Source: Ferroacidibacillus organovorans
GTDB taxonomy: Bacteria; Bacillota; Bacilli; Alicyclobacillales; SLC66
Direction: 5' to 3'
Assembly (NCBI RefSeq): GCF_001642725.1
Contig: NZ_LSUQ01000024.1
Coordinates: 1 to 38,565 of the forward strand
Length of the DNA: 38,565 nucleotides
A model generated the notes under the pieces. That model had not been told where the DNA came from. It did no database searches and saw only the letters and a list, made by a program, of their open reading frames with translations. Below are positions 2,119-25,333 of the stretch, in pieces. A program made the translations under genes and the position numbers. Every line of letters starts with the position of its first letter. The stretch's first letter is position 1.

Positions 2119-4092
2119 TCAAATCGCCATGAATAGCAGTTCCGCGATATCATTTGTATCGATTTCCTCTTCGACACCCTTTGCCTTTGTTCCATCGATC
2201 ATCATCGTCATACAATACGGGCACGCCGTGGCAATGGTGGTGGCGCCAGTCGCAAGCGCCTGTTCGGTGCGCTCCACGTTGATGCGCTTTTCGCCCGTCT
2301 CTTCTTTAAACATCGAGCCGCCACCCGCGCCGCAACACATGCTCTTATTGCGACTGCGCTCCATTTCGAGCACGGTGAGGCCAGGAATGTGTTCAAGAAT
2401 ATAGCGCGGCGCGTCATACTCTCCATTATACCGCCCGAGGTAGCACGGGTCGTGATACGTAACCGTCTTTTCCACGCGCTGCTTCGGAATGATGCGTCCC
2501 TCTTTGAGCAATTCCGCCAAAAACTGTGTGTGATGCAGCACCTCAATGTCCAGTCCGAAATCCTTGTATTCCTTGGAAAACTGATTGAACGCGTGCGGAT
2601 CCGTGGTGATGATTTTTTTTACGCCGTACGCTTTAAAGAGTTCCACATTGCGCTCGACCAACTCCTGATAGAGAAACTCATTGCCGAGACGGCGCGCTGA
2701 ATCTCCATCGCTCTCTTCCTCTTTTCCGAGGATGGCAAAGTCGACATTCGCCTTTTGCAAAAGTTTCACAAAGGACTGCGCGATCTTTTGATTGCGCGGA
2801 TCAAAGGACACAGCCGTTCCAACATAGTATAGGTAGTCCACGGCGCCTTCCACATCTTCCATCGCGCGAATGCCAAGACCCTCCGCCCACTCCGCGCGCG
2901 CGGAACGCGGACGCCCCCACTCGTTGGAGTGACGCTCAAGGTTTGTGAACGTGCGGTTGACTTCTCCCGGCGCGTTGCCCTTGGTCAAGACAAGGTCGCG
3001 ACGAAGATCGACGATCAGACTGACATGCTCATTAAAGACCGGGCACGCCTCCTCACACGCGCGACATGTCGTGCACGCCCAAATCTCATCTTCGGTGTAC
3101 ACTTCGCCCACCAGATCAGGAAGGCTCGCCGTGTAATCCTCGCCGCCTGCGGCCATCTTCAAAAGAGACGGGCCCTGATCGACAAGATGATCCTTCATTT
3201 TCAGGATCAGGTACTTAGGCGAGAGATCCTTCCCCGTGAGCGTGGCGGGGCAGGATACATGACAGCGCCCGCACTCCGTACAGGCGTACCCGTCGAGAAG
3301 TTGCTTCCAACTCAACTGTGTGACTTTGGCGACACCAAACTCTTCCACCGTCTCATCCGACAAGTCAAGCGTTTTCAGCTTGCCGACAGGCCCAAGGTTG
3401 CGATAGTACGTGTTGAAAACGGCGCCAATCATATGCAAGTGTTTTGAGCGTGGTATAAAAACGAGAAAACCAAAGATGGATAGCGTATGGATCCAGAAAA
3501 AAACCTGCGCAAGATTTCCCGCAACGGCTGGCGACATGCCAGAAAACCAATACGCGACCAACGTTGACATCGGCGCGGCTGGCACGCTGCTTGCGCCACT
3601 CGCGACTGCGTCGAGCCCCGTCGTCAAGAAGAGTGTCGCCACGATGATAAAGATGAGTCCGAGAATAAAGCCCGCCTCAAACGTAGGTTCAATCCGCATC
3701 GGTCGCCACACGTAGCGGCGAATCAGCGCAACGATCACAGCCACCATGACAAACGCCGCAAACAACTCCTGGGTATGCGTGAACCACCCCTGCGTAAACC
3801 CTGGAATGTGCCTGCCAAACAGGTCAAAGCCAAAAAAGTCGAGTTCGCCAAACCCGAGGATGATGAATCCCCAGAAGATGAAAAAGTGTCCAATCCCTGA
3901 CGGTTCAGCCAATACCTTACCCTGTCCCAGCACGTATTTAAAAAAGCCTCTCATACGCTCTTCGCTGTGGTCTGAGCGATGCTCAGCCTGTCCGAGCCGC
4001 AAAAAGCGATAGCGTTGGTAGATACCCGAGAAAAAACCGATAAGTGCCGCAATCAACAAGACAGTAAACGCAATGATACGCAGCGGTTGCAT
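2119..4092 (-). CDS. fadF: Membrane-bound Fe-S oxidoreductase, FadF/HdrF family (heterodisulfide-reductase-like, CCG domains)
   Basis: N-terminal TM helices, CTECGRCHVSCP, CTTCRACEEACP, YHDPCYLGR, CCGAGGG, TACPYC. ATG 4092 behind GGGAGG. Confidence 0.88.
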   Translation of the reverse strand: MQPLRIIAFTVLLIAALIGFFSGIYQRYRFLRLGQAEHRSDHSEERMRGFFKYVLGQGKVLAEPSGIGHFFIFWGFIILGFGELDFFGFDLFGRHIPGFTQGWFTHTQELFAAFVMVAVIVALIRRYVWRPMRIEPTFEAGFILGLIFIIVATLFLTTGLDAVASGASSVPAAPMSTLVAYWFSGMSPAVAGNLAQVFFWIHTLSIFGFLVFIPRSKHLHMIGAVFNTYYRNLGPVGKLKTLDLSDETVEEFGVAKVTQLSWKQLLDGYACTECGRCHVSCPATLTGKDLSPKYLILKMKDHLVDQGPSLLKMAAGGEDYTASLPDLVGEVYTEDEIWACTTCRACEEACPVFNEHVSLIVDLRRDLVLTKGNAPGEVNRTFTNLERHSNEWGRPRSARAEWAEGLGIRAMEDVEGAVDYLYYVGTAVSFDPRNQKIAQSFVKLLQKANVDFAILGKEEESDGDSARRLGNEFLYQELVERNVELFKAYGVKKIITTDPHAFNQFSKEYKDFGLDIEVLHHTQFLAELLKEGRIIPKQRVEKTVTYHDPCYLGRYNGEYDAPRYILEHIPGLTVLEMERSRNKSMCCGAGGGSMFKEETGEKRINVERTEQALATGATTIATACPYCMTMMIDGTKAKGVEEEIDTNDIAELLFMAI

Positions 4093-4192
4093 GTTTCTTT
4101 CCTCCCTCACCAGACAGAAACCCTTCTTGATCTTATTAAACCACGATCAGCGAAGAGAACGCGAGGTGTCGTATTTTCCACTCCTCTCAATA

Positions 4193-4318: not shown

Positions 4319-5380
4319 TTGGTGAACCGTTTGTCCTCCTTTACACCGCTTTATTTGGATCATCTCGTGATGAAATCCGAGGTGATCCTCTTGGCTACTA
4401 AGATCAGCGAATTTAAGGGAAAACAAGGCTTATTTCAACGCCAGGTTCCTCAGGTACTTGAAACGTTGCAGCAGAATGCGTTCATTCAAAGCACGGAGTC
4501 GTCCAATCGAATCGAAGGAATCTACGTTTCTTCCAAACGATTGGAGTCAATTGTTTGGAATGCAGCAAATCCCGAGAATCGCCCCGAAGGTGAGATTGCT
4601 GGATATCGCGACGTTTTGAATACCATTCATACACATGCTGAACTCATTCCGCTCGCACCGAGCGTGATTCAGCAATTGCATCGCGATTTAATGAAGTACA
4701 GTGGAACGGGGGGCCGCTGGAAACTGATTGATAATTTTATTGAAGAGAAACTTTCAACCGGTGAGACGCGAATTCGCTTCAAGCCAACCCCCGCGTGGCG
4801 TACGGATGAAGCGATGCGGGAACTTTGTGACGCGTTCAAAAGAGCCAGAGATCGCGGCGATTTACCGGATTACGTCTTGATTGGACTGTTTATCTTAGAT
4901 TTTTTTTGTATCCATCCCTTTTCCGACGGCAATGGGAGAATGGCTCGTCTTTTAACTTTGTTGCTGTTGTATCAGAGCGGCTACGCTGTTGGAAAATACA
5001 TCAGCCTGGAAAATGTCATTGAGGATACAAAAATACAGTATTACAATACCCTTGAAATCTCCTCTCAAAATTGGCATGACAGTGCTCATGATTGCAATCC
5101 TTGGATCAATTACTTCCTCACCATGCTCCTAGAAGCGTATCATCGATTTGATAGTCGTGTAGGGACACTGGAGAGCTCCCAGAAGAGGGGGTGGAAAAAG
5201 GAGCGTATCCTCAACATCGTCGATGGTTTTATCGCCGATTTTACGATCGCTGACGTTGAGGAGTTATGTCCGGGGATAAGCCGGCCTACCATAACGAAAA
5301 CCCTGAATGAGTTGGGCCGAAAAGGCACCATCATGTGTATCGAGCACGGTCGCCACGCAAGGTGGGTGAAAAAGTTGTAG
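4319..5380 (+). CDS. Fic-family AMPylase with N-terminal autoinhibitory motif and C-terminal winged-HTH
   Basis: Canonical HPFSDGNGRMAR; SNRIEG fits (S/T)xxxE(G/N); C-terminal FTIADVEELCPGISRPTITKTLNEL. Exact start uncertain. Confidence 0.92.
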   Translation: MVNRLSSFTPLYLDHLVMKSEVILLATKISEFKGKQGLFQRQVPQVLETLQQNAFIQSTESSNRIEGIYVSSKRLESIVWNAANPENRPEGEIAGYRDVLNTIHTHAELIPLAPSVIQQLHRDLMKYSGTGGRWKLIDNFIEEKLSTGETRIRFKPTPAWRTDEAMRELCDAFKRARDRGDLPDYVLIGLFILDFFCIHPFSDGNGRMARLLTLLLLYQSGYAVGKYISLENVIEDTKIQYYNTLEISSQNWHDSAHDCNPWINYFLTMLLEAYHRFDSRVGTLESSQKRGWKKERILNIVDGFIADFTIADVEELCPGISRPTITKTLNELGRKGTIMCIEHGRHARWVKKL

Positions 5381-5401: not shown

Positions 5402-6070
5402 ATGATAAATACAGACATTCCGTTAAGATGGAAACCCATGCGAAAGGTGTGATTATCCATCCAATCCCACATCAACGGCCGCGTTTATTCGTATCTTCGC
5501 ACACCGTACGGGATCTTGCTTGGTTTGTTCCTTGCCATCTCTTTTGGCATAGGCCTCATCACGATGATTCATACGCAATCATTGAACACAACACTTCCAT
5601 CAAATTGGCTATTATACGATCTTCCTTGGCTTGTGACCTCCCTATTCGGGTGGGTTCCCGTCGCGCAAAGCTTACACTACCGACGGACGGACGTGAAACT
5701 CACATTCGATGCGAACGACACCTCATGCTTGGTGGATAGCGGCCCATTTCAAGACTGGTGGCGGATTCACAAAAATTCTCCCCGTTCGATGAAAAAATGG
5801 AGAGTGCTTTGGCTGCTGTTGATTCTCATGATCAGCGGGTTTTCTGTCATCGATACATTAAACCTGTACCACGCGGTCATTTCTCCAGCCAATCGCTTGA
5901 GCGAGGTGTCAAAAATTACTGCCGTTCAAGGTTTATGCGATGCCTTTTTGTTGCTCGGACTCGTGGTATCTCTATGCTCGTTTTGGAACTATCCTTATCT
6001 TATTGCCCTGCGCCAAAATGGTCGGTGGCTGACCATCCAATGTAAGGATGTTAAAAATTTTCCAATCTAA
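5402..6070 (+). pseudogene. Multi-pass membrane protein, probably interrupted by an in-frame TGA at 5450-5452
   Basis: ATG 5402 behind GAAGGA is in frame with the 184-aa hydrophobic ORF 5516-6070. A single TGA at codon 17 separates them. Confidence 0.5.
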
Positions 6071-6089: not shown

Positions 6090-6353
6090 TTACCCAATTT
6101 CATCCAAGGAATCGAGTGGATGGACGCGTCCTTTTTGAAGATCTTCGTCCGCTCGTCGCTCGCGTTCTTGCCATTCCTCTGTCCAGTAGTACGCCTGATC
6201 AGGATCCAAAAGCATCATCTTCTTCGGTCGAAGTAAGATACCTTCCTGGCTGTCAATCACATCCACATAATCGCCTTCTTCAAGATGGAGTTTTTCACGA
6301 ATGATTTTTGGGATGGTGATTTGCCCATTTCGAGTGATTTTGCTGAGCGTCAT
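6090..6353 (-). CDS. AbrB/MazE/SpoVT-family DNA-binding protein (antitoxin-like)
   Basis: SKITRNGQITIPKIIREKLHLEEGDYV plus DQAYYWTEEWQ tail. ATG 6353 behind AGGAG. Confidence 0.88.
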   Translation of the reverse strand: MTLSKITRNGQITIPKIIREKLHLEEGDYVDVIDSQEGILLRPKKMMLLDPDQAYYWTEEWQERERRADEDLQKGRVHPLDSLDEIG

Positions 6354-6380
6354 GATTTTCATCTCCTGACTCATGCATTT

Positions 6381-6392
6381 TAGTAATTACTA
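6381..6392. promoter_or_regulatory. Palindromic operator upstream of the AbrB-family gene
   Basis: Perfect palindrome TAGTAATTACTA between a minus-strand TTGACC and TAAAAT. Confidence 0.5.
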
Positions 6393-6583
6393 TAATGTAT
6401 GCGCGGTCAAGGATCAATGTGCAGCGATCTGATCTAAAGGGAATTTTGACTAAGCGATGAGACTGGGTCAGATCCACGCCTATTTTCACAAAAATCCGAT
6501 TACAGAACTCACCATTTTCGAGAATAGCGGATATTTTCCTCACGCGGAGGAAGCCGAAATATTTTCTACAGAAATTTATCTTT

Positions 6584-6829
6584 TTATCGGTTGCTTTCCA
6601 TCTGCGCCGCGATCGCGGCCAGCAACTTCATCCGATCAAAACCCTGAATCCACGTCTCGCCGATGCGAAACACCGGCAACGTTTCCATCTTCTGATCCCG
6701 CAACAGCGCGATGTGTTCAGGCTCTTGGTAAATATCGATCACGTCAAACGGGAGATGCAACGATCCGAGCCAAACCTTGGCTGCCTGACAACGCACTCAG
6801 GTCGCCTGGCTGTACATCTCGATGCGCAT
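6584..6829 (-). CDS. Glutaredoxin/NrdH-like redoxin with UxxC motif (candidate selenoprotein, 81 aa)
   Basis: RBS GAGGAGG (6837-6843), ATG 6829: MRIEMYSQAT-[TGA 6797-6799]-VRC-QAAKVWL...ETLPVF...IQGFD. TGA sits exactly at the first Cys of CxxC. Confidence 0.82.
6752..6799 (-). promoter_or_regulatory. Candidate bacterial SECIS element
   Basis: Upper stem AGCCAA-GGU-UUGGCU (6768-6782) with a G-starting apical loop 20 nt after UGA; lower pairing GUGCG/UGCAU. Confidence 0.65.
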
Positions 6830-6857
6830 AAAAAAACCTCCTCGCGAGTCACTCTCA

Positions 6858-7601
6858 CTATTGTAACCCGCGACGGATCATCTCGTGAACAATAAACGAA
6901 GAAACCTCAGGCGCCAGCGTCCCCGACCCAAAGCCCGCGTCATAACCGAGCTCAAGCGCAAGCTCATGGCCAATGCGCGGCCCCCCACAAATCACAATCA
7001 GCTTTGAGCGCAAGCCTTCCGCTTCCAGCATGTCGACGAGTTCACCGAGGTTTGAGATGTGCACATCCTTTTGCGTCACCACCTGCGAAACCAGGATCGC
7101 ATCCGCGTTTAGCTCGCGCGCCTTGCGCACCAACACTTCATTCTCCACCTGGCTCCCCAGGTTGTACGCGTCAATCTCCGGATACCGCTCAAGCCCATAC
7201 TCTCCCGCGTATCCCTTCATATTCATGATCGCATCAATCCCGACCGTGTGCGCATCCGTCCCCGTGCACGCGCCGATCACCACGATCTTGCGCTTGATCT
7301 TCTCGCGGATGAGCGCGTTGACCTCGACGAACGAGAGCACGGGGCTCTCCACTTTCGGCACGCGAATCGACGTGTAATCCACCTCGGTCACGACCTTGCC
7401 ATACAGCACAAAAAAGCTCATCTGCTCTCCCAAGTCCGCCATGTGCACAACCTGCGGTTCAAGCAGCCCCATGCCCGACGCCACCTGCCGGGCGCACTCG
7501 CGCGCCTCTTCGCCAAAAGGTACCGGGAGCGAAAAGCTCACCTGCACAACACCGTCATGGAGCGTATCGCCATAAGGCTTGACGCGCGTCAAATCATTCA
7601 C
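6858..7601 (-). CDS. kamE: D-lysine (beta-lysine) 5,6-aminomutase beta subunit
   Basis: KPYGDTLHDGVVQVSFSLP; B12 motif DAHTVGIDAIMNMKG; CGGPRI. Confidence 0.95.
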   Translation of the reverse strand: MNDLTRVKPYGDTLHDGVVQVSFSLPVPFGEEARECARQVASGMGLLEPQVVHMADLGEQMSFFVLYGKVVTEVDYTSIRVPKVESPVLSFVEVNALIREKIKRKIVVIGACTGTDAHTVGIDAIMNMKGYAGEYGLERYPEIDAYNLGSQVENEVLVRKARELNADAILVSQVVTQKDVHISNLGELVDMLEAEGLRSKLIVICGGPRIGHELALELGYDAGFGSGTLAPEVSSFIVHEMIRRGLQ

Positions 7602-9211
7602 GCGTTGACCCCCTCACTTTCCCGCGCAACATGGCCGGCGTCTGTCTCATCGAGCTTTAGCGCAGCGCGCAGCGCGTCTTCCAGCGGATTGAAGTAATCC
7701 TGCTCGCGCAGCACCACGCCGCGCAGCCCTTTGCCACTCTCAAGCGTTCGCTTCACATCCGCAAACTCGCCTTCTGCAATGGCCTGAAACAAACCCTTCG
7801 ACCGCACATCGCGTAAAAGATCAAGCGCCTCATCCAGCACCTGGCGCGCGCGCGCCACCATCTTTCCCTCCGGGTGGAACATCAGCTCATCGCCCAAATG
7901 GCGCGCATTGTTGAAAATATAGCGCGCCGCTTCGAGCGCAAGCTGCCGATCGTGAATCAGCGGGGTATGGATCGCCTCGGTCATCATGCCAAGCAGTTGG
8001 ATGCCTTGCCCCGACGCCACGCCAACCAGGTTGAACAACGCGTCTTGCACGTGGCCGCGAAAAATGTTGCCCGTCATGTGCTTCGTCGGGGGCATATACT
8101 TGAGCGGCGCTTCCGGGAAGATTTCGCGCGCCATCAGCGCCTGCGCCCACTCGAGAAGAAGTCCGTCTTCTATCTCCGGGTCCATCTCAAACGCGTGCCC
8201 AAGCCCCAGTTGGCTTGACGGAAGTCCTGAGCGAAACGCCAGTTGCTCATTGATCAACTGTGACGCAAGCACGGTGTGTGCGGATTGCACCGCATCTGCC
8301 GTGGTGAGGTAGTTGTCCTCACCCGTGTTGATGATGATCCCGGCATACGCGTTGATCATACGGCTAAACGATTGGTCGACAAGCGTCCGCTGCATGTTGA
8401 TGTCGCGAAAAAGGATGCCGTACAGCGCGTCATTGAGCATCACGTCAAGCCGCTCAAGCGCCCCCATCGCAGCGATTTCTGGCATGCAAAGCCCCGAGCA
8501 GTAGTTGCACAGGCGGATATAGCGGCCGAGCGATTCACCGATCTCGTCGAGCGCCGCGCGCATGATTTTAAAGTTCTCCTGCGTGGCGTACGTTCCGCCA
8601 AAGCCCTCCGTCGTCGCCCCATACGGCACGTAGTCAAGCAGCGACTGACCTGTGCTGCGGATGACCGCGATGATATCCGCCCCTTGGCTTGCCGCGGCGC
8701 GCGCCTGCACGACATCTTCATAGATATTACCTGTCGCGACAATCACGTAGAGAAGCGGTGACTGCCCGCCTGAGAGACGTGCGAGATACGCCTCGCGCTG
8801 TGTGCGTTGCGCCGCAATCCGCGCAAGCGCCTCGACTGCCAACTGCGCCCCGCGCGCGCGAATCTCCGCTTCTGGCAGCGTTTGAAACGAGAGAATGTCT
8901 GCATCGCCGCGCGCCACATCACTGCACAGCGCCGCCACATCGCCCCCTGTTTGCGCCAAGGCCTGTATGAAGTAGCGAGTAACCCCGCGCGCCAGCTTCC
9001 CCTGCTTTAGCACCTGATCGACCATCAGGTTCGCTACCGGGACGCCTTCCTCATCCACACCGTCGACACCGAGCAACCGCAAGACCGTGCGCTCCACGGC
9101 CACCGTCGAACGCTTGCGAATATAGCGCGTGACATCATCGGCGATGCGCGACGCCTCCGCGCGCGCTTCTTCAATCTTCCCTTCTGCAAGCAACATCTTC
9201 GCAGTCGGCAC
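7598..9211 (-). CDS. kamD: D-lysine 5,6-aminomutase alpha subunit
   Basis: TVAVERTVLRLLG, VIVATGNIYEDV, NYCSGLCMPE, KYMPPTKHMTG. GTG 9211 behind GGAGGGG. Confidence 0.95.
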   Translation of the reverse strand: MPTAKMLLAEGKIEEARAEASRIADDVTRYIRKRSTVAVERTVLRLLGVDGVDEEGVPVANLMVDQVLKQGKLARGVTRYFIQALAQTGGDVAALCSDVARGDADILSFQTLPEAEIRARGAQLAVEALARIAAQRTQREAYLARLSGGQSPLLYVIVATGNIYEDVVQARAAASQGADIIAVIRSTGQSLLDYVPYGATTEGFGGTYATQENFKIMRAALDEIGESLGRYIRLCNYCSGLCMPEIAAMGALERLDVMLNDALYGILFRDINMQRTLVDQSFSRMINAYAGIIINTGEDNYLTTADAVQSAHTVLASQLINEQLAFRSGLPSSQLGLGHAFEMDPEIEDGLLLEWAQALMAREIFPEAPLKYMPPTKHMTGNIFRGHVQDALFNLVGVASGQGIQLLGMMTEAIHTPLIHDRQLALEAARYIFNNARHLGDELMFHPEGKMVARARQVLDEALDLLRDVRSKGLFQAIAEGEFADVKRTLESGKGLRGVVLREQDYFNPLEDALRAALKLDETDAGHVARESEGVNA

Positions 9212-10799
9212 CCTGCATCCCCTCCACGTCTTCACTCTGCCCATCCCCGCGCATAAACCTCGACGCCTCTGCGACAAGCGCCGCGGGAAGCCCAAGCCAG
9301 GCGGCGACTGCGATCCCTTGTCGCAGCTCAGTCCCCGTCGCCTTTGTCAATCGGTAATCCATATGCGTCTTGAGATCTTCCGGCGTGTGACACATCGCAA
9401 GCGCCTCTTTGCTGATCCCGCGCACGGTGAGGTGCGTCGCACCCGGCAAACGCCGCGAAAAGTGCGTCACTGCAAAAGTGACGCCGCTGCGCGCCGTCTG
9501 ACGCTTTTGCAAGATCGCGAAAAGCAGCGCCTCGCCCTCCTGCGGATTCGTCGCGCGCCCCACTTCATCCAGGCACAAAAAGACCTCTTCCTCCGCGAGC
9601 GCTTCCTTGATCGCGAGCACCTCCGCCGCAAACGTGGAGATGCCCGCGTCCAGCGCCTGCTGGTCGCCGCCGATATAGCGCAGCGCCTTGTAGAGCGGCG
9701 CGCGATACGCCGAGGCATACACAGGCGCGCCCCACTGGTGCAGCAGTTGCGCGCTGAGCAGCGTGCGAAGCGCAGCGCTCTTTCCACCCATGTTCATCCC
9801 GGTCAGCAGCGTGACACGCGTTTTGAGCGCGATATCCACAGGTTGAAACGCAGCATAAAAAGGGGGGCGTCCGGCATACAGCTCCGGCGCGTCACCAAGC
9901 TCTGACCACACAAACCCGGCGCGCTGCCTTGCCGCGACACGTCCGAAAAGATCATCCAGCCGCCCGATCTGCACCATCAGCGCGTCCAGCGTCTGCGAAT
10001 CTTTCGCAAGAGTCGCTGAGACGCGCGCGAGCACCTCTGCGCGCAACCGTCGAACGACCCCTTCGCACGCGTCGCGTTGCGCCGTTGCGCGCGTCAGCGC
10101 GGCATCTTCCACCACATCGTACACCCGCTCTTCGCGCGTCGTAAGGCGCAGTCGCAGACGCGGATCACGCAGCATCTCTGCTTCGCGCGCGTCATAAAGC
10201 GGCGCGATCAGCGTGCCGTCGCGGCGCATGGCGCGACCGTACGCTTCGTGAAGCGCGCGACTCACGTTTCGCTTCCCTTGATCAAGCGCCAGGCGCGCGC
10301 GCGCGGATGCATCCGACGCCGCACGGAGCGTAGCGTCCAGCGCATCAAGACAAAAGGCAGGCTCCCCGCCGACAAGCTGAATGAAAGGTGGCGCCGCCGC
10401 ACTGTCCCACCAAGAAAAGCGCAGTGACGCCTGTGCCAACGCGGCGTCAAGAGCGATTGCCAAATGGATTGCGCGATGGAGCGTCGCGAGTTGCGCCTCC
10501 GAGAGTGTGCGTCCTTGCGCAACAGCGGCGCACGCCGCTTCCGTATCGGGAAACAGATCGAGCAACTCTGCCAGACGCTCGTAAAGCGACGCGCGTTCAG
10601 GCGACGAGTAGGAAAACGCTGCATCAAGCGCCCGCGCGTCTGCCTGATCGCACCGCCACGCTTCCTCATCCCCCAGGGAAAACGGCCCACGCGCGCTGCG
10701 ATACGTAGCGCCGCACGCCGTTCGCGTCGGAAACAGCGTCTGCAGCGTTCCCCACGCCACGTAGGCGTCCGTCTCAGCCGTCGTAAAGCGCACCCGCAT
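9171..10799 (-). CDS. kamC: MutS-domain ATPase, lysine 5,6-aminomutase reactivase-type subunit (KamC-like)
   Basis: TGMNMGGKS (Walker A), STFAAE, DEVGRATNPQEG, VTH. Lies between kamB and kamD; ATG 10799 behind GGAGGTGG. Confidence 0.8.
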   Translation of the reverse strand: MRVRFTTAETDAYVAWGTLQTLFPTRTACGATYRSARGPFSLGDEEAWRCDQADARALDAAFSYSSPERASLYERLAELLDLFPDTEAACAAVAQGRTLSEAQLATLHRAIHLAIALDAALAQASLRFSWWDSAAAPPFIQLVGGEPAFCLDALDATLRAASDASARARLALDQGKRNVSRALHEAYGRAMRRDGTLIAPLYDAREAEMLRDPRLRLRLTTREERVYDVVEDAALTRATAQRDACEGVVRRLRAEVLARVSATLAKDSQTLDALMVQIGRLDDLFGRVAARQRAGFVWSELGDAPELYAGRPPFYAAFQPVDIALKTRVTLLTGMNMGGKSAALRTLLSAQLLHQWGAPVYASAYRAPLYKALRYIGGDQQALDAGISTFAAEVLAIKEALAEEEVFLCLDEVGRATNPQEGEALLFAILQKRQTARSGVTFAVTHFSRRLPGATHLTVRGISKEALAMCHTPEDLKTHMDYRLTKATGTELRQGIAVAAWLGLPAALVAEASRFMRGDGQSEDVEGMQGADCEDVACRRED

Positions 10800-11904
10800 C
10801 CACCTCCATCGCGTCGACCACAGGGACATTCACCTCTGCCTTGAGCGCGCGCATCAGCGCGCCGCGTTCAAGGCGTTGCCCGCCGCGCGGCGTCATCGGA
10901 TTGACCGCGACACCAAGCAATGGAACAGACTTCAAGACGCGCAGTCGGTGTCCCCCACGCGCAAACTGCCGCATGGTCTCATCGCTGCAAAAAAGATGGG
11001 CGGCACTGCGCACAATCACCACCTGCGGACGCCTTTGCGCCGCGACGCGCGCAAGCCATGCGTCCGTTACGGCGCCGCCACAATAGAACACACTGTGCGC
11101 ATCCGTTACACGCCCGTCTCGCGCAAAATCGTCTGTGAGCAGACTGCCTTCAGGCAGAAAAAGCGGATCTCCCCAGACCGTCTCACCGTCGCGGTCACAC
11201 GGCAATGCGACAAGGCCATTTACAGATGCGAGTTCCGGCAGTTGCCGCGCGAGTTCCGGCTCTAGTTCGGATAGACGCAGGCGCAAAAGTGCGGATTTTG
11301 CGACCGCAACCGTCTCTTGGAGCGAGCCGCGCACGTTTCCCACCGCGAGAACGACACCATCGGCAAGCTCCGAATCGACCGCAGCCATCCGCGAAAGCGC
11401 TCCATCGATCAGCATGTAAGCCGCTCCTCGCGCAAAAAACTGCGTCTTGAGCGCTAGCAACTGCTCCTTTTGCCGGACGCCTGCCAAAACGACCGAACCG
11501 GGTGTGCGCGTCTGCCCGATCCACACCTCGCCTAAGGGCGAGGTGATCGACGTTGGCGCGTGCCAAGCCATGGCTGCCGACGAATCGGCATTCGCCGTGA
11601 TCACCGTCGCAACCCATGTCCCCTGTCGGCAGACGATCTGCGGCTTTGGCGTACCCAAGATCACGTCAGCCCGCTCGCCATCCACGCCGATGCTCACCAG
11701 CGCAAGCGACGCGCGAGGTGCGCACTGGAGCAGCGCGCCAAGTAGTGTCGTCTTCCCGGCATGCTTGTTCGTGCCGACCACGGCCAGCGCGCGTACGCCT
11801 AATGCCTCAGCCCGCGCCCAGATCTCCGTGATCACGTCGCGCTTCGCGAATACGTCGCGTGCCACGAACACGTCGCGCCGGTTTGGCGTCGCGCGCGACC
11901 GCAC
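10774..11904 (-). CDS. kamB: P-loop protein, lysine aminomutase reactivase-associated (KamB-like)
   Basis: VVGTNKHAGKTT, SIGVDGE, LIDGALSR, GVAVNP; position after kamA. Start ambiguous. Confidence 0.75.
   Translation of the reverse strand: MRSRATPNRRDVFVARDVFAKRDVITEIWARAEALGVRALAVVGTNKHAGKTTLLGALLQCAPRASLALVSIGVDGERADVILGTPKPQIVCRQGTWVATVITANADSSAAMAWHAPTSITSPLGEVWIGQTRTPGSVVLAGVRQKEQLLALKTQFFARGAAYMLIDGALSRMAAVDSELADGVVLAVGNVRGSLQETVAVAKSALLRLRLSELEPELARQLPELASVNGLVALPCDRDGETVWGDPLFLPEGSLLTDDFARDGRVTDAHSVFYCGGAVTDAWLARVAAQRRPQVVIVRSAAHLFCSDETMRQFARGGHRLRVLKSVPLLGVAVNPMTPRGGQRLERGALMRALKAEVNVPVVDAMEVDAGALYDG
11824..11893. repeat. Imperfect tandem repeat (units of 18,18,18 and 16 nt) at the 5' end of kamB
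   Basis: Core (a/g)cgtcgcg at 11834, 11852, 11870, 11886; encodes RDVFVA-RDVFAK-RDVITE. Confidence 0.75.
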
Positions 11905-11923: not shown

Positions 11924-13276
11924 TTACGCATCGCCATCCCATGTCCCGCCACGCATCGCCTGATTTTGAGGCGCCTGCCGCCCTGCACCCTCACCTTGGT
12001 GCCCCGCCGCGCGGTGCAAGCCCTTCGGCTCAAGGCTCAGTGCCTGATTGTTAAGCAGCTTCGCGACGCCAATCGCCTCTTCTTCGTGGTTGTGCGTGCA
12101 CGTCGGCGGACACCCTTGATCCTCGTAGACCGGCTCGTTGTAAACTGAGATGACCCCTTCAAAATTGCGCAAGATCACTTTGCTGTGCCCTTGCGAGATC
12201 AGGTATTGCGGCATGACCGGAATCTTGCCGCCGCCACCCGGCGCATCGACGACAAAGGTGGGAACAGCGTAGCCAGACGTGTGACCACGCAGTTGCTCCA
12301 TGATTTCGAGCCCTTTGGAGACGGTCGTCCGGAAATGGCTGATGCCCTCTGACAGATCGCACTGATAGATGTAATAAGGACGGACGCGAATTTTGACAAG
12401 GTCGTGCATCAGTTTTTTCATGATGTGCGCGCAATCGTTCACGCCGCGCATCAGCACCGACTGATTGCCCAAGGGCACACCCGCGTCAGCGAGTCGCTCG
12501 CACGCAAGTTTTGCCTCCGGCGTGATCTCATCCGGGTGGTTGAAGTGCGTATTGATCCACACCGGGTGGTACTTGCGCAGGATGTTGCAGAGGTTCTCCG
12601 TGATGCGCTGCGGGAAGACGACAGGCGCGCGCGTTCCGATGCGAATGATCTCGACGTGCGGGATCGCGCGCAGGCTTGAGATGATGTATTCGAGGATCTT
12701 GTCATTGACGAGCAGCCCGTCGCCGCCAGAGAGCAGCACATCGCGAACGGCTGGCGTGCGGCGGATGTAGTCGATCGCCGCGTCGAGTTGCGGCTTTGGC
12801 ACCGCGTGCCCGACAGCGCCTGAAAAGCGGCGGCGCGTGCAGTGACGGCAGTACATCGAGCACTGATTGGTGATTAAAAAGAGAACGCGATCCGGATAGC
12901 GGTGCGTCAAACCGGGCGCGGGAGCATCCTCGTCTTCTGCGAGCGGGTCCTCCATATCCCACGGCGAGCGAGACATCTCATGCGACAGTGGAACCGCTTG
13001 CAAACGAACGGGACAGTTCGGATCATCCGGGTGCATCAGCATCGCGTAATACGGCGTGATGCGCAGCGGAATAGTCTCCTTGACACGCGAGACGCCAATT
13101 TTTTCCTCAGGCGTCAGATTGACCACTTGCGCAAGATCCTCCATGGTATCAATCGTGTGCGTGAGTTGCCACTTCCAGTCGTTCCACTGCTCATCCGTGA
13201 CGTCCTTGTAGAGCGGAATATCGCGAAAGTGTCGCTGTTTTTTTCCGTACAAAATCTCGTGTGGCGCAAGGCTCAT
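11924..13276 (-). CDS. kamA: L-lysine 2,3-aminomutase (radical SAM, PLP)
   Basis: GLTHRYPDRVL, CSMYCRHCTRRR, LSGGD, DAPGGGGKIP. Confidence 0.97.
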   Translation of the reverse strand: MSLAPHEILYGKKQRHFRDIPLYKDVTDEQWNDWKWQLTHTIDTMEDLAQVVNLTPEEKIGVSRVKETIPLRITPYYAMLMHPDDPNCPVRLQAVPLSHEMSRSPWDMEDPLAEDEDAPAPGLTHRYPDRVLFLITNQCSMYCRHCTRRRFSGAVGHAVPKPQLDAAIDYIRRTPAVRDVLLSGGDGLLVNDKILEYIISSLRAIPHVEIIRIGTRAPVVFPQRITENLCNILRKYHPVWINTHFNHPDEITPEAKLACERLADAGVPLGNQSVLMRGVNDCAHIMKKLMHDLVKIRVRPYYIYQCDLSEGISHFRTTVSKGLEIMEQLRGHTSGYAVPTFVVDAPGGGGKIPVMPQYLISQGHSKVILRNFEGVISVYNEPVYEDQGCPPTCTHNHEEEAIGVAKLLNNQALSLEPKGLHRAAGHQGEGAGRQAPQNQAMRGGTWDGDA

Positions 13277-14331
13277 TGTGGTGTTCCTCCCCCGGTTGGT
13301 TGTGCGAGTTTCGCTGCAAAGACAGCCTGCAATTTGGGTTCATTCCGCACGAGTTCAAACGCCAGCTCTGCGTGCCCCTCTGCGTATCCGTTGCCAATCA
13401 GCATGTCGACGTCTTTGCCAACACCCTCCGCCCCGAGCGCGGCCGCTGTGAAGGAGGTCGCCATGCTAAAGAAGTAAACCAGCCCGCGCGTGCGGGTCAC
13501 CAGAATGGAAGCAAGTTCCGTGCCAGGTGCACTTACACAGTTGATGGTGACATCCGCAAGCACCCCGTCTGTCACATTCATCATCGCGTTCAGCGTTTGC
13601 ACAGGGTCACGCGCGTCCGCCAATACCACATGGTCCGCACAACCGAGTTCGCGCAGCGCTTGCGCCGATTTTTCGGCAGTTTCAAACGCGATCAGCCGCC
13701 CCGCTTCGCCGATTTTTCGGCGCGCCTGAACGGCGGACAGCATCCCCGATTTGCCGCCTCCGCCGAAAATCGCCACCGTCTGCCCCGGTTGACAGATGCG
13801 CGCCACCTGCGCTGGCGCCCCGCACACATCACACACAGCGAGCGCGAGCGCTTCAGGTAAATCACTCGGCAGGCGCGCAAGCAGTCCGCTTGAAAAAAGA
13901 ACGGCGGTGCCGCTACAGACGACTTGGCCTGTATCTAGATGAATCGAGTGAATCGCCTCTATGTGCAGCGGTGTGAGCGAGAGTGACACGAGGGTCGCAA
14001 TGCGATCTCCTGGCGCAATGGCCGCTCTATTTTCATAGTTGACGCCGATTTCCCTTACCGTGCCAAGCAGCATGCCGCCGGACCCAGTCACTGGGTTGTG
14101 AAGCTTCCCGCGCTCACGGATGATAGACAGGATGCGCTCGGAAACGGCGTGCTCGTCACGTCCGACATCCGCGATGATTTGCTGAAACGACGCGGCATCT
14201 ACATTGAGCGCCGACACGTCGATCAGCACTTCATCCTCGCTGCACACCGCTGTGGCGTCGAGCCGCCACGCGGGTTGCGGCATTGCACCGCGCGGTTCGA
14301 GCACACGCCTTATGCCGTATGGATCAGACAC
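13273..14331 (-). CDS. kdd: L-erythro-3,5-diaminohexanoate dehydrogenase
   Basis: DPYGIRRVLEP..PQPAWRLD, RGKLHNPVTGSGGML, GGGGKSG, FSMATSFTAAALGAEGVG. GTG 14331 behind AAGGAGG. Confidence 0.93.
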   Translation of the reverse strand: MSDPYGIRRVLEPRGAMPQPAWRLDATAVCSEDEVLIDVSALNVDAASFQQIIADVGRDEHAVSERILSIIRERGKLHNPVTGSGGMLLGTVREIGVNYENRAAIAPGDRIATLVSLSLTPLHIEAIHSIHLDTGQVVCSGTAVLFSSGLLARLPSDLPEALALAVCDVCGAPAQVARICQPGQTVAIFGGGGKSGMLSAVQARRKIGEAGRLIAFETAEKSAQALRELGCADHVVLADARDPVQTLNAMMNVTDGVLADVTINCVSAPGTELASILVTRTRGLVYFFSMATSFTAAALGAEGVGKDVDMLIGNGYAEGHAELAFELVRNEPKLQAVFAAKLAQPTGGGTPQ

Positions 14332-14384
14332 AAAAAATCCTCCTTGCGCCATCGTTTCGTCATCAACGATCTTGCAAGAAGGTA

Positions 14385-20289: not shown

Positions 20290-21768
20290 TTAGTCATTCT
20301 GTCCAGTGCGCGTTGTCTTATTCACCTCTGCAGAGCGCACTCCAGAAGCCGCAATGTTTCGTGAAATACCCCACTTCTTCATCTTGGACTGCAGCGTCTG
20401 CCGCGGAATCTCAAGCATGGCCGCGGCAGCGCTTAAGTTCCATTCGCAAGCGGCGAGCGCATGCACAATCATGTCACGTTCAAGCGCCTCCACACTGGCT
20501 GCAAGCCCCTGCTGCCGCCTGTCTGCAACAGGCTGTAGGCCCTTCGGCGCGTCCGTACCACCGCGCGGCGCGTGATGCTGTGTGAGATATTGCGGCAGGT
20601 GGCTCACATCGATCCACGCATCTTCCACCAGATTCATCGCGGACTCGAGCGCGTGACGCAATTCCCGCACATTCCCAGGCCATGTCGCGTCACGCAACAC
20701 CCGCAAGGCGCCTGGGGTCAGTCCGCGCACCGTCATGCCAAACCGCGCATTACAATCCCCCACAAAGTGATCGATCAGAAGTTCCAGATCCCCTCGTCGT
20801 TGCGCGAGCGCGGGAAGGCGCAAAGAAACCACCTGAATGCGATAAAAGATATCCTCGCGCAACATCTTCTCGCGCACCGCCGCCTCCGGTTCCACATTCA
20901 TCGCCGCCAAGATGCGCACATCAATTGCGCGCGACTTTTGATCCCCCAAGCGGCGAACGTGCTGGTCGTCGAGCACACGCAGGAGTTTTGCCTGAAGGTC
21001 AATCGGAAGCGCGTGGATCTCATCTAAAAAGAGCGTGCCTTCACTCGCCAATTCAAACAGTCCGGCGCGGTTTTCGGCGCCAGTGAAACTCCCCTTCACC
21101 GTGCCAAAAAGTATACCTTCAAGGAGCGGGCCAGGGAGCGCCGCGCAATTTTGCGCGATAAAGGGTCCGTTTGCGCGCGGACTCGCCGCGTGAATGCCCT
21201 GTGCAAAAAGCTCCTTTCCCGTGCCTGTCGGCCCATAGATCAAGACCGGGGACGACGTGCGCGCCGCGCGTTTTGCACGCGCTTTCATCTCAAGCAAAGT
21301 AGGGTCCGCAGTGAGTACGTCATCAAGCGTATAGCGCACCGCCGCCGAGCGCTCCCCTGAGCGTGGCGGACGCGTGGCCGCCTGGAGTTCGACGACGCGT
21401 TCTGCGAGATGCTGCACCTCCGTAATGTCTTGCGCGATCTCCAAGGCGCCATAGAGCCGCCCATCGCGGTACACGGCACGCGTCGCATTCGCGGTGTGCA
21501 CCTCATCCCCGCGAAAGTTCCGATACGATTGCCGGCGCAAGAGCACTGGATCACCTGAGCGCAACACCCGCAGCAGCGAGCTTGTCTCTTCCGTCAACGA
21601 AGGATACACATCGAGCACATGCCGCCCTAGCACCTCCTCGCGCGAAAGGCCGTCAAGCGTTGCCGCCGTTTGATTGTAGAGAATTGTCACTCCACAGTCA
21701 TTGACCGCATGAACGCCAACGCGAACGGATTCGAGCAGCGCGTGAAGCCATACATCCTCATCCTTCAT
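20290..21768 (-). CDS. PAS-domain sigma54-dependent activator, RocR/KamR type
   Basis: PAS, GPTGTGKE, ILFGTVKGSFTGA, LFLDEI, WPGNVREL, C-terminal Fis-type HTH. Confidence 0.92.
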   Translation of the reverse strand: MKDEDVWLHALLESVRVGVHAVNDCGVTILYNQTAATLDGLSREEVLGRHVLDVYPSLTEETSSLLRVLRSGDPVLLRRQSYRNFRGDEVHTANATRAVYRDGRLYGALEIAQDITEVQHLAERVVELQAATRPPRSGERSAAVRYTLDDVLTADPTLLEMKARAKRAARTSSPVLIYGPTGTGKELFAQGIHAASPRANGPFIAQNCAALPGPLLEGILFGTVKGSFTGAENRAGLFELASEGTLFLDEIHALPIDLQAKLLRVLDDQHVRRLGDQKSRAIDVRILAAMNVEPEAAVREKMLREDIFYRIQVVSLRLPALAQRRGDLELLIDHFVGDCNARFGMTVRGLTPGALRVLRDATWPGNVRELRHALESAMNLVEDAWIDVSHLPQYLTQHHAPRGGTDAPKGLQPVADRRQQGLAASVEALERDMIVHALAACEWNLSAAAAMLEIPRQTLQSKMKKWGISRNIAASGVRSAEVNKTTRTGQND

Positions 21769-23098
21769 CTAACCACTCCCTAGGGAAAAGCACGCGCGAT
21801 ACACTGGCGCGACGCGACTTTACCGCCTCGACAATGAACGATTGACGCGCGAGTTCCGTCGCGTTCCCGCTTGCGTCAAACAAATAAATCTGCTCAAACG
21901 TTGGGTCGTGTTCATCCGAACCGAGATACGAATCCTTATATGCCTGACTCCCCGCCTGATCAAAGATGACGTAAGACGCGGCTGGCAACCCCTTCTTTTT
22001 CGCAATGCGTCCCATGCGCGCCAGCCACCTCTCCGCCTCTTCCATCGAGTGAACATCCACGCTGTGAAAGAGATGCCGATTCAAAAGACGCTGCGACAAA
22101 TCAGCCAGCACCGGGTCTTCATGCCGCGTGAACGCACGCAGCGCAGACCACAGGAGGTGATCATCCAGTTCCAAATAATCCGAGATCACAGACCACTCTG
22201 CCGTGGCTGCACTCACGCCATTCACCTCTGCCATGCGCAAATCCCCTCGCAAGAGCGCGCGCATCGCTGGAAAGCCAGGGAGATCCGCGCCGACTTCCGC
22301 CGCGCGCGCAAGCGTGCGCTCGACTTGCACCTCGGCAGAGCGCGTCAAACGATGAAAATAGACATGAAGATACATATAATAGCGACACATGATATAGTCC
22401 TCAGCGATGCTCTGACCGCGCGCCAAGTCAAGTCCAATCTCCGGCTCCCCCTGCACCTCGCCGATGCGCATGACATGAAGGAGCCACTCCACGTCAAACG
22501 TCCCATAACCCGCCCCCGTCATCAGGGCATCGCGCAAGAGATAGTCCGTGCGATCCATATCAAGCTGTGAAGAGAGCAACTTTACAATCGCGCGGCTCTC
22601 CGGAAAATCCTTTTCAATCAGTCGCGCCACCTGTTCGGCGAATCCGCTGGCGTACGCTTCAAGCACCTGATGAACCTCTGTCTTTTTACTGCGGATCATT
22701 GCCGACGTGAATCGTTCGTGGCGAATGCCCGTAACTGCTTCGAGAGCGTGTGAGAATGGCCCGTGACCGATATCGTGAAGCAAAGCCGCCGCTAGCGCGA
22801 GATGGCGATACTCGCGCAGTGCATACGCCCCGCGCGTTTGCTCTCCCGCGCGATCCTCATCGAGAAAGCGGCGCGTGAGATGGGCGACGCCAAGCGAGTG
22901 TACGAAGCGGGAATGCTCGGCGCCTGGGTACACGATGTTGCTGAGTCCCAACTGTCGAATGCGCCGCAAGCGCTGAACTTCCGCCGTATTGATCAGATCG
23001 ATAAGCAATTGGTCATCCTCGCCAAACGCGATGAGATTGTGCACAGGATCGCGAAAACTCTTCACGTCACCCACCCCCTTGAGACGATCTCCGTTCAC
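21758..23098 (-). CDS. HD-domain phosphohydrolase (YwfO/dNTP triphosphohydrolase-like)
   Basis: RDPVH, QRLRRIRQLG, HSRFVHSLG, LLHDIGHGPFSH, DMDRTDYLLRD. Confidence 0.92.
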   Translation of the reverse strand: MNGDRLKGVGDVKSFRDPVHNLIAFGEDDQLLIDLINTAEVQRLRRIRQLGLSNIVYPGAEHSRFVHSLGVAHLTRRFLDEDRAGEQTRGAYALREYRHLALAAALLHDIGHGPFSHALEAVTGIRHERFTSAMIRSKKTEVHQVLEAYASGFAEQVARLIEKDFPESRAIVKLLSSQLDMDRTDYLLRDALMTGAGYGTFDVEWLLHVMRIGEVQGEPEIGLDLARGQSIAEDYIMCRYYMYLHVYFHRLTRSAEVQVERTLARAAEVGADLPGFPAMRALLRGDLRMAEVNGVSAATAEWSVISDYLELDDHLLWSALRAFTRHEDPVLADLSQRLLNRHLFHSVDVHSMEEAERWLARMGRIAKKKGLPAASYVIFDQAGSQAYKDSYLGSDEHDPTFEQIYLFDASGNATELARQSFIVEAVKSRRASVSRVLFPREWLDEG

Positions 23099-23505
23099 GG
23101 TTCAAAATCAAGTTCAATCGCAATCGTCAGCGGATGCTCATCCACGCCATGCATGACCATCGACGCGACGATCTCCGCCTGAATGCCTTGATTGGTCACA
23201 AACACCGCGAGCGTTGACGTGTACACACGCAGTTCGATCTTCCCTTCCGGAAAATCGTAGAAACCGTCTGTTGTCTGCTCCAGTTCAAAATCGTAGGAGG
23301 CGCGAACACCGCCCACCCGCTCCACACGGATGAACGGTCGGCGCGTGAGTGAAAAGGTAACGGTCGTTTCCGTCTGCGCAAAGTTCTCCTCAGGCTCGTG
23401 ATAACTCGCCTGATAAAGCGATCCCCGCATGCGAATGCGCGCGGGCGCCTTCGTATCAAGCTCCCCCGACACAATGCGAATCGTCCCTGCTCGTTCCCGC
23501 TCCAT
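23095..23505 (-). CDS. DUF1934 (YwiB-like) beta-barrel protein
   Basis: 136-aa beta-rich ORF (YHEPE, VERVGGV, YDFPEGKIEL) directly after speB, the usual position for this family. Confidence 0.6.
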   Translation of the reverse strand: MERERAGTIRIVSGELDTKAPARIRMRGSLYQASYHEPEENFAQTETTVTFSLTRRPFIRVERVGGVRASYDFELEQTTDGFYDFPEGKIELRVYTSTLAVFVTNQGIQAEIVASMVMHGVDEHPLTIAIELDFEP

Positions 23506-24383
23506 CAGTCAGCAAACGCCAGCAGTGCTTCACGCACCACTTTGGCCGCGACAATCTGGGTTTGCTCACTCGCGTCAAGCACAGGCGCGACCTCAACGAG
23601 ATCAAATCCGACCACATTGAGCCCCTTCATTGCGTGAATCGCCGCGAGCAACTCTTTCGATGAGATGCCGCCCGCTTCCGCCGTCCCTGTTCCCGGCGCG
23701 TGCGCAGGATCAAGCACATCGATGTCAACCGTGACATAGATCGGTCGCCCCTCTAGCTGCGCCAGGCATCCGCGCAGTGGCTCAAGCACGTCAAACGGGT
23801 GAAAGTTCGTATGCTCCTTTGCCCACGCGAACTCCTCGCGCGTACCTGAGCGAATCCCGAACTGATAGATGTTCACCGGATCGACAAAGCCTGCGATTTT
23901 TTTGATAACCGCCGAGTGGGAGAGCAGTTCACCCTCATACTGATCACGCAAATCGGTGTGCGCATCAACGTGCACAATCACGATTTCCGGGATGCGTTTT
24001 GCCACAGCGCGGACCACCCCGAGCGTTACAAGATGCTCGCCGCCGAGTCCGAGCGGGAATTTCCCGTCATCAAGCCACTGACCGACATACTGCTCGATCA
24101 TAGTGAGGCTGCGCTCTGGGTTGCCGAAAGGCAGCGGGATATCTCCCATGTCAACAAAACTCGCATCCAAAAGGCTGCGGTCGAGATAGGGACTGTACTC
24201 TTCTAGTCCAAGCGATACTTCGCGGATGCGCCGCGGCCCGAGACGCGTACCTGGACGAAACGACGTCGTCCAGTCCATCGGCATGCCATAGATTACAGCG
24301 CGCGCCGCATCGTACCCCTCTTTTGCGCTGATAAACGTCTGCCCTGCGTACGCAGGGTCAAACGGTTCGCGATGCCCTCTCAC
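23505..24383 (-). CDS. speB: Agmatinase
   Basis: [35 protein letters not shown]. Confidence 0.96.
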
Positions 24384-25213
24384 TTTGCGATCAACTCCTT
24401 GGCGAACCGCGGGAGCGCAAACGCTGCGGCGTGCAGATCGGGCGTGTAATACTTTGTCTCAAGCGAATTTGCGCGCGCAGGATCGGCAATCATTTTAGGA
24501 TCATACTGCTTACTGCCAATCGTGAAGCTCCAAAGTCCGCTCGGATACGTCGGAATCGAAGCCAGGTAGAGGTGCGTGTGTGTAAACAGCGATGAGAAAT
24601 CGCCATAGACGCGAGAGATCAGTTCACCATTAAAAAATGGCGACTCCGTCTGCGCGACGACAATGCCATCCGGGCGTAGAGCGCGATGAATTGCTTCATA
24701 AAAATCGCGCGCAAAAAGCCCCACCGCAGGTCCGATCGGATCCGTCGAATCAACGATAATCACATCATACTGGCCTTCACTCTCGTTGACATGTGCAATG
24801 CCGTCAATCACGCGAACCGAAACGCGCGGATCATCAAGCGCACATGCAATCGCCGGCAAATACTTCTTCGAGACATCAATGACGCGCCCGTCAATCTCTG
24901 CGAGCACGGCGTGTGTCACACTCGGATGCTTGATCACTTCGCGAATCACGCCACCATCCCCGCCACCGACGACGAGCACTCTCTGCGGGTTTTTGTGTGC
25001 GCTAAGCGCCACATGCGAGATCATCTCGTGATACACAAACTCGTCGCGATCGGTCGTCATCACACAGCCGTCAAGCACGAGCATGCGTCCCCACTCCAGC
25101 GTATCAATCATCGCGATGTCTTGAAACTCACTCGTCTCTGTGTGAAGAGACTCTTTAATCTTCGCTGTGATGCCGTAATTCGCCGTCTGTTTTTCCGTAT
25201 ACCAAAGTTCCAT
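24380..25213 (-). CDS. speE: Polyamine aminopropyltransferase (spermidine synthase)
   Basis: [36 protein letters not shown] 25213 behind GAGGAG. Confidence 0.96.
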
Positions 25214-25333
25214 CGTGACACTCCTCATTCTCACAATAAACACCTTCGCTAGTATAACAAATCAAGCGATCCCGCGACGACTTCTTTCTTGCGACAGAAT
25301 TTTGCCTGACCACCTTTTGAACTCGCACACACG

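Follow-up and report, generated by a model that had tools for sequence, protein, structure and literature searches.

Glutaredoxins that carry selenocysteine (Sec, U) as the leading residue of a UxxC motif have been in the list of bacterial selenoproteins since the Sargasso Sea survey of 2005, in which ten sequences are reported (PMC1088965), and later reviews class them as experimentally verified (PMC9312934, PMC13188914). Clostridium oremlandii Grx1 (cGrx1), whose motif is U(or C)PXC, is described as natively containing Sec, recycled by glutathione and proposed as the reductant of the selenoprotein MsrA (PMC7642778). Selenoproteins also occur inside amino-acid fermentation operons, as reported for GrdA/GrdB, PrdB and PrdC of Clostridium sticklandii; Table 2 of the same paper lists no selenoprotein under lysine fermentation (PMC3091704). 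Within the lysine pathway, lysine 5,6-aminomutase is described as an enzyme E1 (KamDE) with an activating "sulfhydryl protein E2" for its reactivation (PMC9081730), suicide inactivation yielding cob(III)alamin and isolated E2 having adenosylcobalamin (AdoCbl) synthetase activity (PMC3958899). The locus analyzed here lies in a 38,565-nucleotide stretch of Ferroacidibacillus organovorans DNA (contig NZ_LSUQ01000024.1, positions 1 to 38,565; the window), where a small redoxin gene interrupted by an in-frame TGA follows kamE in a lysine-degradation (kam) cluster.

The first-pass annotation, made from the letters of the window, had read this gene as a Sec-glutaredoxin ending the kam operon. Gene and context stand, whereas the protein type is not new, because UxxC glutaredoxin has long been listed as a selenoprotein. 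What looks new is the subfamily with its cysteine (Cys) counterpart, along with the constant position of the gene behind kamE. The best overall explanation, held with high confidence as a combination, joins a selenoprotein gene, a link to the operon and an inferred upkeep function, the parts of which are graded separately below.

Conservation of the in-frame TGA and the redoxin fold

Analysis of the minus strand reveals a frame that opens at ATG 6829, its first start codon, reads MRIEMYSQAT-TGA-VRCQAAKVWLGSLHLPFDVIDIYQEPEHIALLRDQKMETLPVFRIGETWIQGFDRMKLLAAIAAQMESNR and closes at the stop 6584-6586. The single in-frame TGA occupies the first position of the UxxC motif and is followed by VRCQAAK. 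With very high probability, the open reading frame (ORF) 6829..6584 is an intact selenoprotein gene, its UGA codon 11 being decoded as Sec by SelB and tRNA-Sec. The predicted product would be an 81-residue NrdH/YruB-like redoxin with Sec11 as the nucleophile and Cys14 as the resolving residue (U-V-R-C). A spacer of 28 nucleotides (nt) separates the kamE stop TAG (6860-6858) from the redoxin ATG, and purine-rich sites precede the start in all redoxin orthologues. The frame, ribosome-binding site, spacer and hairpin of the first-pass annotation (ATG 6829, GAGGAGG, 28 nt) were all correctly placed. Moreover, bases 6797-6799 are identical in contigs from three independent metagenome studies (X5, X6 and X7), for which no differences are listed across 6626-6854 and ten occur in the 134 bases past the stop codon.

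The TGA is a shared feature of the gene. A search of 41 related genomes gives 14 sites in 11 genomes. Eight of these sites are orthologues, from eight genomes in four genera with 40-94% identity, each containing one TGA at the same codon within the motif Y-S-Q-[A/T]-[T/S/A]-U-x-x-C; the remaining sites comprise four members of a second Sec family (VYTTxxU-GKC) and two Cys forms. Searching with the part after CxxC adds a metagenome contig (L107) as a ninth kam-linked copy with the TGA kept, bringing the count to 9/9 kam-linked copies with TGA at the same codon; the other locus from that metagenome search was spurious. The second Sec family, glutaredoxin-like and represented by L032 (G006), L034 (G016), L035 (G012) and L036 (G033), has its own conserved hairpin, GAAAGA-GUN-UCUUUC, and Cys forms L031 (CSHC) and L033 (CARC); none of these genes adjoins kamE.

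The residues ahead of the TGA bear directly on where translation starts. Y, S and Q are invariant and their codons vary (TAC/TAT, AGC/TCT/TCG/TCA and CAG/CAA), so translation begins ahead of the TGA. Only here is the TGA followed by GTG, the relatives having GCG, CAG, CTT, CAA, ACG, AGT or CGG, and a general restart behind the TGA is therefore excluded. A true stop at this position, arising by nonsense mutation or assembly error or marking a 10-codon leader ahead of a 70-amino-acid (aa) product from GTG 6796, would agree with the gene callers' own call (P0003, 70 aa, five member sequences) and with the GTG that follows the TGA in the window. It is nevertheless very improbable: the TGA holds its codon in all nine copies, three independent assemblies agree, the next codon in the relatives is never a start codon, the residues ahead of it are conserved at the protein level, and a product missing strand beta-1 and the nucleophile would, on the structural model, be no redoxin.

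Public databases reflect the truncation foreseen in the first-pass annotation. The entries P0003, P0007 and P0008 start only behind the TGA, P0004 represents the copy of genome G002 with the TGA translated as W, and a word-indexed search of 5.8 billion proteins returns the 70-aa truncated call only. The Sec forms are thus public only as post-TGA fragments or as a TGA=W translation, and automatic surveys miss the subfamily because its entries have this form.

Cys-containing relatives place a catalytic residue at the TGA. A profile search of 1.84 billion representatives yields P0005 (89 aa, 114 bits, YSQATCIKC), which belongs to this subfamily and has Cys in place of Sec. Among 401 genomes sampled from the class there is a sister clade, YSQPT-[U/C]-PPC (L109-L118), with five Sec and five Cys members scoring 65-82 bits to the profile. 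This clade shares the YSQ..[U/C]xxC..AKxWL block with the kam-linked redoxin, and its five Sec members have the same AGCCAAGGNUUGGCU hairpin; it differs in never adjoining kamE and in the alternation of Sec and Cys among genera. Specifically, Cys aligns with the TGA in P0005, L109, L111, L116, L117 and L118 and in the solved structures 7C10 and 1H75. Members of the kam-linked subfamily score 126-138 bits, and the next-best genomic matches reach at most 82 bits.

With Cys substituted for the TGA, the product matches Pfam PF00462 (Glutaredoxin) over residues 3-59 at 29.8 bits against a gathering threshold of 22.9, and the TLPV (T50-L-P52) and IQGFD segments named in support of a glutaredoxin/NrdH fold are both present, P52 being invariant in 8/8 orthologues. 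An AlphaFold2 model from an eight-row alignment, again with Cys for Sec, has a predicted local distance difference test score (pLDDT) of 94.9 and shows the order beta-alpha-beta-alpha-beta-beta-alpha, placing the U/CxxC motif after beta-1 and including a cis-Pro loop as in the thioredoxin-type fold. The nearest solved structure is E. coli NrdH-redoxin 1H75 (template modelling (TM) score 0.82/0.87, root-mean-square deviation 1.1 A, 31% identity), with C. oremlandii Grx1 7C10 at TM 0.82/0.90; sequence-profile ranking of solved structures puts 7C10 first (E 1.1e-9), followed by 1H75 (4.7e-9).

Matches to curated family models fall short of their cut-offs. The best NCBIfam match, YruB TIGR02196, spans residues 2-73 with 46 bits against a cut-off of 88.55, while the NrdH-redoxin models give 41.5 bits against 85.75 (TIGR02194) and 39.7 against 131 (NF007657). 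No nrdI, nrdE or nrdF lies nearby, the neighbours being kamE and toxin-antitoxin or Fic genes, and the Uxx-star selenoprotein model NF041212 gives 21 bits against 66, over residues 3-42 only. Because the YruB and NrdH scores lie far below their cut-offs, the redoxin is, by profile comparison, a separate subfamily in the NrdH/YruB-like branch of the glutaredoxin fold.

The SECIS-like hairpin and the selenocysteine machinery

In the proposed decoding mechanism, SelB and tRNA-Sec would be guided to UGA codon 11 by a 15-nt hairpin beginning 14 nt past the UGA and presenting a GGU triloop (6776-6774), with the loop G 20 nt past the UGA. The E. coli fdhF element is recognized through loop residues G23 and U24. 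In the 6-bp helix, 94% of 84 cells pair across 14 Sec forms (nine kam-linked and five from the sister clade), compared with 70% of cells in five Cys forms. The third base of an Ala codon (column 33), free with respect to the protein, pairs as C with a Trp codon in 14/14 Sec forms versus 1/5 Cys forms, and two sequences have G-C in place of A-U at one helix pair. These patterns support the hairpin as a putative SelB-type element resembling a selenocysteine insertion sequence (SECIS), maintained through synonymous positions in the Sec forms but decaying in the Cys forms.

Several results weigh against this assignment. The 50 nt past the UGA are no stabler than shuffles (z = -0.71), 49/200 of which fold equally well or better; covariation is weak, with one compensatory pair and 32/500 shuffles reaching the observed score; and an Rfam scan of 6400-7000 with E up to 10 finds no SECIS family, the sole match being a chance small RNA. 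As the single-sequence hairpin is not significant, its support is comparative, and comparative pairing counts as support rather than proof because covariation is weak and the sequences are related.

The genome itself is equipped for Sec insertion. The F. organovorans assembly (98 contigs, 96.8% complete) contains tRNA-Sec (63.3 bits against a cut-off of 47; ARAGORN tRNA-SeC, anticodon tca) together with selA (567 bits), selB (372 bits) and selD (388 bits), all above their cut-offs, and selD carries one in-frame TGA of its own. A genome scan for in-frame TGA codons with coding signal on both sides, followed by a requirement for a Pfam domain spanning the TGA, identifies SelD and three other UxxC genes (Table 1). 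Most scan candidates were rejected as two adjacent genes sharing a frame, for example Fpg+CoaE, CbiC+CbiD, YidC+Jag and ThiL+TsaE. In-frame stops are absent from both FdhA homologues of the genome, and on this ground the selenoproteome looks purely thiol-redox; GrdB was not found in the genome, a weak blank in that control genomes likewise gave nothing.

All four of these genes and the kam-linked gene have a perfect stem of 5-7 bp with a GGN triloop starting 21-27 nt from the U of UGA. The same stem and GGN-triloop rule applies after 3/705 TGA stops of long frames and 184/118431 TGA triplets in all frames, a background figure that is weakened, not erased, by the rule having been framed after the genes were seen; this, too, is a point against the hairpin's assignment. 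The genome nonetheless offers a clean internal example, with a 5-7 bp stem and GGN triloop about 20 nt past the UGA in all five selenoprotein genes, and the rule could help to find further selenoprotein genes in related genomes.

A different decoding, with Trp, Cys or Gly inserted at the UGA in place of Sec, would match the W at this position in P0004, but it meets a genome in which TGA is the commonest ordinary stop, ending 705/1466 frames of at least 300 codons, so that no genome-wide sense reading of TGA applies. Together with the full Sec machinery, the correspondence of the UGA to the catalytic Cys of CxxC in homologues and the SelB-type hairpin common to SelD and three other UxxC genes, this makes such readthrough extremely unlikely. 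Sec decoding is the reading retained, and the first-pass annotation had anticipated its supports: the machinery genes, a TGA conserved in relatives, Cys at the same position in homologues and a conserved hairpin were all recovered.

The kam cluster and the distribution of the redoxin gene

The order kdd-kamA-kamB-kamC-kamD-kamE-grx runs along one strand, with five of the six kam-cluster genes above their NCBIfam cut-offs (Table 1). Elsewhere in the order, wherever contigs extend far enough, the genes found likewise run kdd-kamA-B-C-D-E, five contigs ending early and KamC being undetected in one genome. The listed kamD and kamC frames overlap by 125 nt (9171-9295, minus) with a TTG as the listed kamD start, and tblastn matches of most relatives to KamD start near residue 53; for these reasons, the true kamD start probably lies downstream of the listed TTG. 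KamD additionally contains a C-x-x-C-x-x-x-C triad at residues 263, 266 and 270, conserved in 28/28, 25/28 and 28/28 genomes of the order, for which we know of no described role.

Table 1. Coordinates of the redoxin gene, the kam cluster, neighbouring genes and the other predicted selenoprotein genes of the genome
Feature	Location	Strand	Basis
Predicted selenoprotein gene, 81-codon NrdH/YruB-like glutaredoxin-fold redoxin, U11-V-R-C14, stop TAA 6584-6586 included	6584..6829	minus	Translation, Pfam, AlphaFold2, orthologues
TGA codon 11, probably read as selenocysteine	6797..6799	minus	Conservation, Cys homologues, Sec machinery
Shine-Dalgarno GAGGAGG, ATG 6829 7 nt further on	6837..6843	minus	Sequence
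SECIS-like hairpin AGCCAA-GGU-UUGGCU, 6-bp stem, nt 18-32 from U of UGA	6768..6782	minus	Comparative pairing
kamE, lysine 5,6-aminomutase beta subunit (B12-binding)	6858..7601	minus	NF052385 397.5 vs 280; Pfam OAM_dimer, B12-binding
kamD, lysine 5,6-aminomutase alpha subunit	7598..9295	minus	NF052384 869 bits vs 600
kamC-like MutS-type ATPase (reactivase component)	9171..10829	minus	NF052383 226.9, below cut-off of 300, best match; Pfam MutS_V
kamB, reactivase subunit	10774..11904	minus	NF052386 234.2 bits vs 210
kamA, radical-SAM lysine 2,3-aminomutase	11924..13276	minus	TIGR03820 628.6 vs 525.4; Pfam LAM_C, Radical_SAM
kdd, L-erythro-3,5-diaminohexanoate dehydrogenase, first gene of cluster	13273..14352	minus	NF052381 248.6 vs 200
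Fic	4319-5380	plus	
184-aa ORF	5516-6070	plus	
MazE-like antitoxin	6090-6374	minus	
82-aa ORF	6295-6543	minus	
SelD, motif GUGCK	L163, G000:C34:8672-9802		Pfam domain spans TGA
Thioredoxin, motif WUPGC	L155, G000:C11:33621-33926		Pfam domain spans TGA
AhpF-N-terminal-like two-domain redoxin, motif TUPYC	L150, G000:C76:8341-9021		Pfam domain spans TGA
AhpC/TSA-type redoxin, motif WUPNC	L164, G000:C53:13635-14165		Pfam domain spans TGA

The redoxin gene is likely the last gene of the kdd-kamA-kamB-kamC-kamD-kamE cluster and placed on a shared transcript, a reading favoured by the 28-nt spacer, the gene's own Shine-Dalgarno sequence and the absence of a terminator before it, no terminator-like site being detected in the 28-nt kamE-redoxin spacer. 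Eight of the nine copies have spacers of 28, 28, 16, 46, 40, 39, 99 and 54 nt from kamE stop to redoxin start. In G002 the spacer extends to 751 nt, kamE being parted from the redoxin gene by an inserted PHD-like antitoxin gene and a 72-aa ORF, which speaks against a dedicated role. One feature of the window tells against co-transcription: a promoter-like pair, TTCACG-18-TACAAT at 6889-6860, lies just upstream of the redoxin gene, though such pairs are only as frequent as in shuffles (3 found, 3.2 expected). The absence of an obvious terminator and the synteny with kamE, the former noted and the latter proposed as a check in the first-pass annotation, hold, the latter in all nine copies.

The distribution of the linkage is narrow. 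Of the 64 genomes in the order, 28 have KamE, and in 8/28 of these the redoxin gene is located downstream of kamE, at most 1.5 kb away and on the same strand. Weighing against a dedicated role, the other 20/28 kamE genomes of the order have no redoxin near kamE, nor one genome-wide above 54 bits, the non-carriers including G010, which shares its genus with the carrier G002, and all three members of genus g7. Redoxin-profile searches of 401 phylum-sample genomes (12 genomes matching, E up to 1e-12) and 401 class-sample genomes (15 matching, E up to 1e-16) give no further kam-linked copy. KamE exceeds its cut-off in 80/401 phylum-sample genomes, and around the best 29 of these 80 kamE loci, the present one not counted, no glutaredoxin-like domain is detected to a distance of 1.5 kb (E up to 1), a search in which the positive control reaches 141 bits. 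The redoxin is no regular member of the kam cluster, its linkage being confined to part of one family.

This pattern is what would be expected of a genuine but general-purpose Sec redoxin that landed 3' of the kam operon in one lineage and has no aminomutase-specific task, an explanation to which we give a little short of an even chance. It fits the linkage in 8/28 genomes of the order and 0/29 further loci, the nearest clade being found away from kamE and the genome's other selenoproteins all being general thiol-redox proteins, and it draws on a kam 3' end that accepts foreign genes: G002 has a PHD-like pair there, and in the window the redoxin is closely followed by Fic and MazE-like genes. 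Set against it are the retention of kamE adjacency in 9/9 copies across four genera, although protein identity falls to 40-50%, and the absence of any orthologue above 100 bits away from kamE, in carriers or in the other genomes searched.

The segment 4319-6543, a likely mobile/addiction block (Table 1), separates the redoxin gene from a gene for a 663-aa membrane Fe-S oxidoreductase (2119-4110, minus) with five predicted transmembrane segments and 4Fe-4S dicluster and CCG domains. The kam cluster 3' end seems an insertion hot spot. Homologues of the oxidoreductase (~660-746 aa) lie directly after kamE or the redoxin gene in eight other genomes of the order, and here it is followed by FdhD (1256-2122) and acetyl-CoA acetyltransferase (2-1162); it may belong to the electron flow of the lysine pathway. 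In heterodisulfide reductases, CCG domains form the module that handles disulfides. As DsrC is to DsrK, so the redoxin could be a small partner of this oxidoreductase, the ~660-aa gene of Fe-S/CCG architecture lying directly after the redoxin gene in G004, G012 and G016 and 2.5 kb downstream here. Such a partnership is improbable, as the oxidoreductase directly follows kamE in five redoxin-less genomes (G007, G017, G047, G048 and G030), is not adjacent in G001, G002, G005 and G013, and is separated from the redoxin gene by opposite-strand genes in the window.

Farther along the window, 20290-25243 (minus) groups a PAS/sigma-54 activator, an HD-domain protein, an arginase-family (agmatinase-like) protein and spermidine synthase. 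Beyond this block lie spoVT, mfd, pth, an L25 gene and prs in a layout typical of spore-forming Bacillota, the lineage to which the host belongs (SpoVT, Mfd and Pth in the window).

Candidate role and comparison with described redoxins

Because aminomutases need no net electrons, a role of the redoxin in the lysine pathway would be one of upkeep. We tentatively infer, at somewhat less than an even chance, that it acts as a dedicated selenol/thiol-disulfide oxidoreductase keeping the oxidation-prone aminomutase system active. Sec11 would attack a disulfide or other oxidized centre of the partner, Cys14 would resolve the selenosulfide, and some reductase would recycle the redoxin. The likeliest targets would be the "sulfhydryl protein" E2, corresponding to the KamB/KamC reactivase, or else cob(III)alamin arising from suicide inactivation, with the cysteines of radical-SAM KamA a less likely target. 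In the Stadtman papers, classical assays reportedly needed a mercaptan. The functional tie between redoxin and aminomutases is put forward as a testable hypothesis.

Features of the Kam proteins count against such a tie. The aminomutase reactions are redox-neutral; no Cys column of Kdd or KamA-E is specific to redoxin-bearing genomes among the 28 kamE genomes of the order, an absence of co-variation that also suits a general-purpose redoxin; and KamB is without a broadly conserved Cys, while KamC has one, C419. That the Sec redoxin became a dedicated kam accessory, reducing the KamB/KamC reactivase (E2) or cob(III)alamin after suicide inactivation, is rather unlikely. If true, anaerobic lysine degradation would be selenium-dependent, and no earlier redoxin would have been assigned to maintaining a B12/radical-SAM isomerase instead of serving a reductase. 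If the operon link is functional, the redoxin becomes a candidate for supplying the thiol that reactivation of lysine 5,6-aminomutase requires, which would tie selenium to lysine fermentation; failing that, it simply adds to a familiar class of thiol-redox selenoproteins. A literature search on selenoproteins together with aminomutases or lysine fermentation, judged mostly from titles and abstract openings, found no description of such an operon link, and neither "lysine" nor "aminomutase" occurs in a 2026 selenoproteome review.

Among described proteins, C. oremlandii Grx1 (7C10, solved in its Sec-to-Cys form) likewise combines the glutaredoxin fold with Sec first in a U-x-x-C motif after beta-1, differing in its identity of ~25%, in UPHC versus UVRC here and in having no kam context. 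The YruB family (TIGR02196) supplies the nearest NCBIfam model, yet the redoxin is no member by the curated threshold. E. coli NrdH-redoxin is likewise small (~80 aa) and encoded in the operon of a radical enzyme, but it has Cys rather than Sec, C-V-Q-C versus U-V-R-C and SGFRP versus QGFDR. NrdH gives stoichiometric electrons to ribonucleotide reductase, whereas aminomutases need no net reductant, and NrdH-type proteins use thioredoxin reductase. The Grd and Prd operons of C. sticklandii encode electron-consuming reductases, in contrast to the isomerases of the kam genes; like the locus described here, they place a Sec redox protein within an operon of anaerobic amino-acid catabolism.

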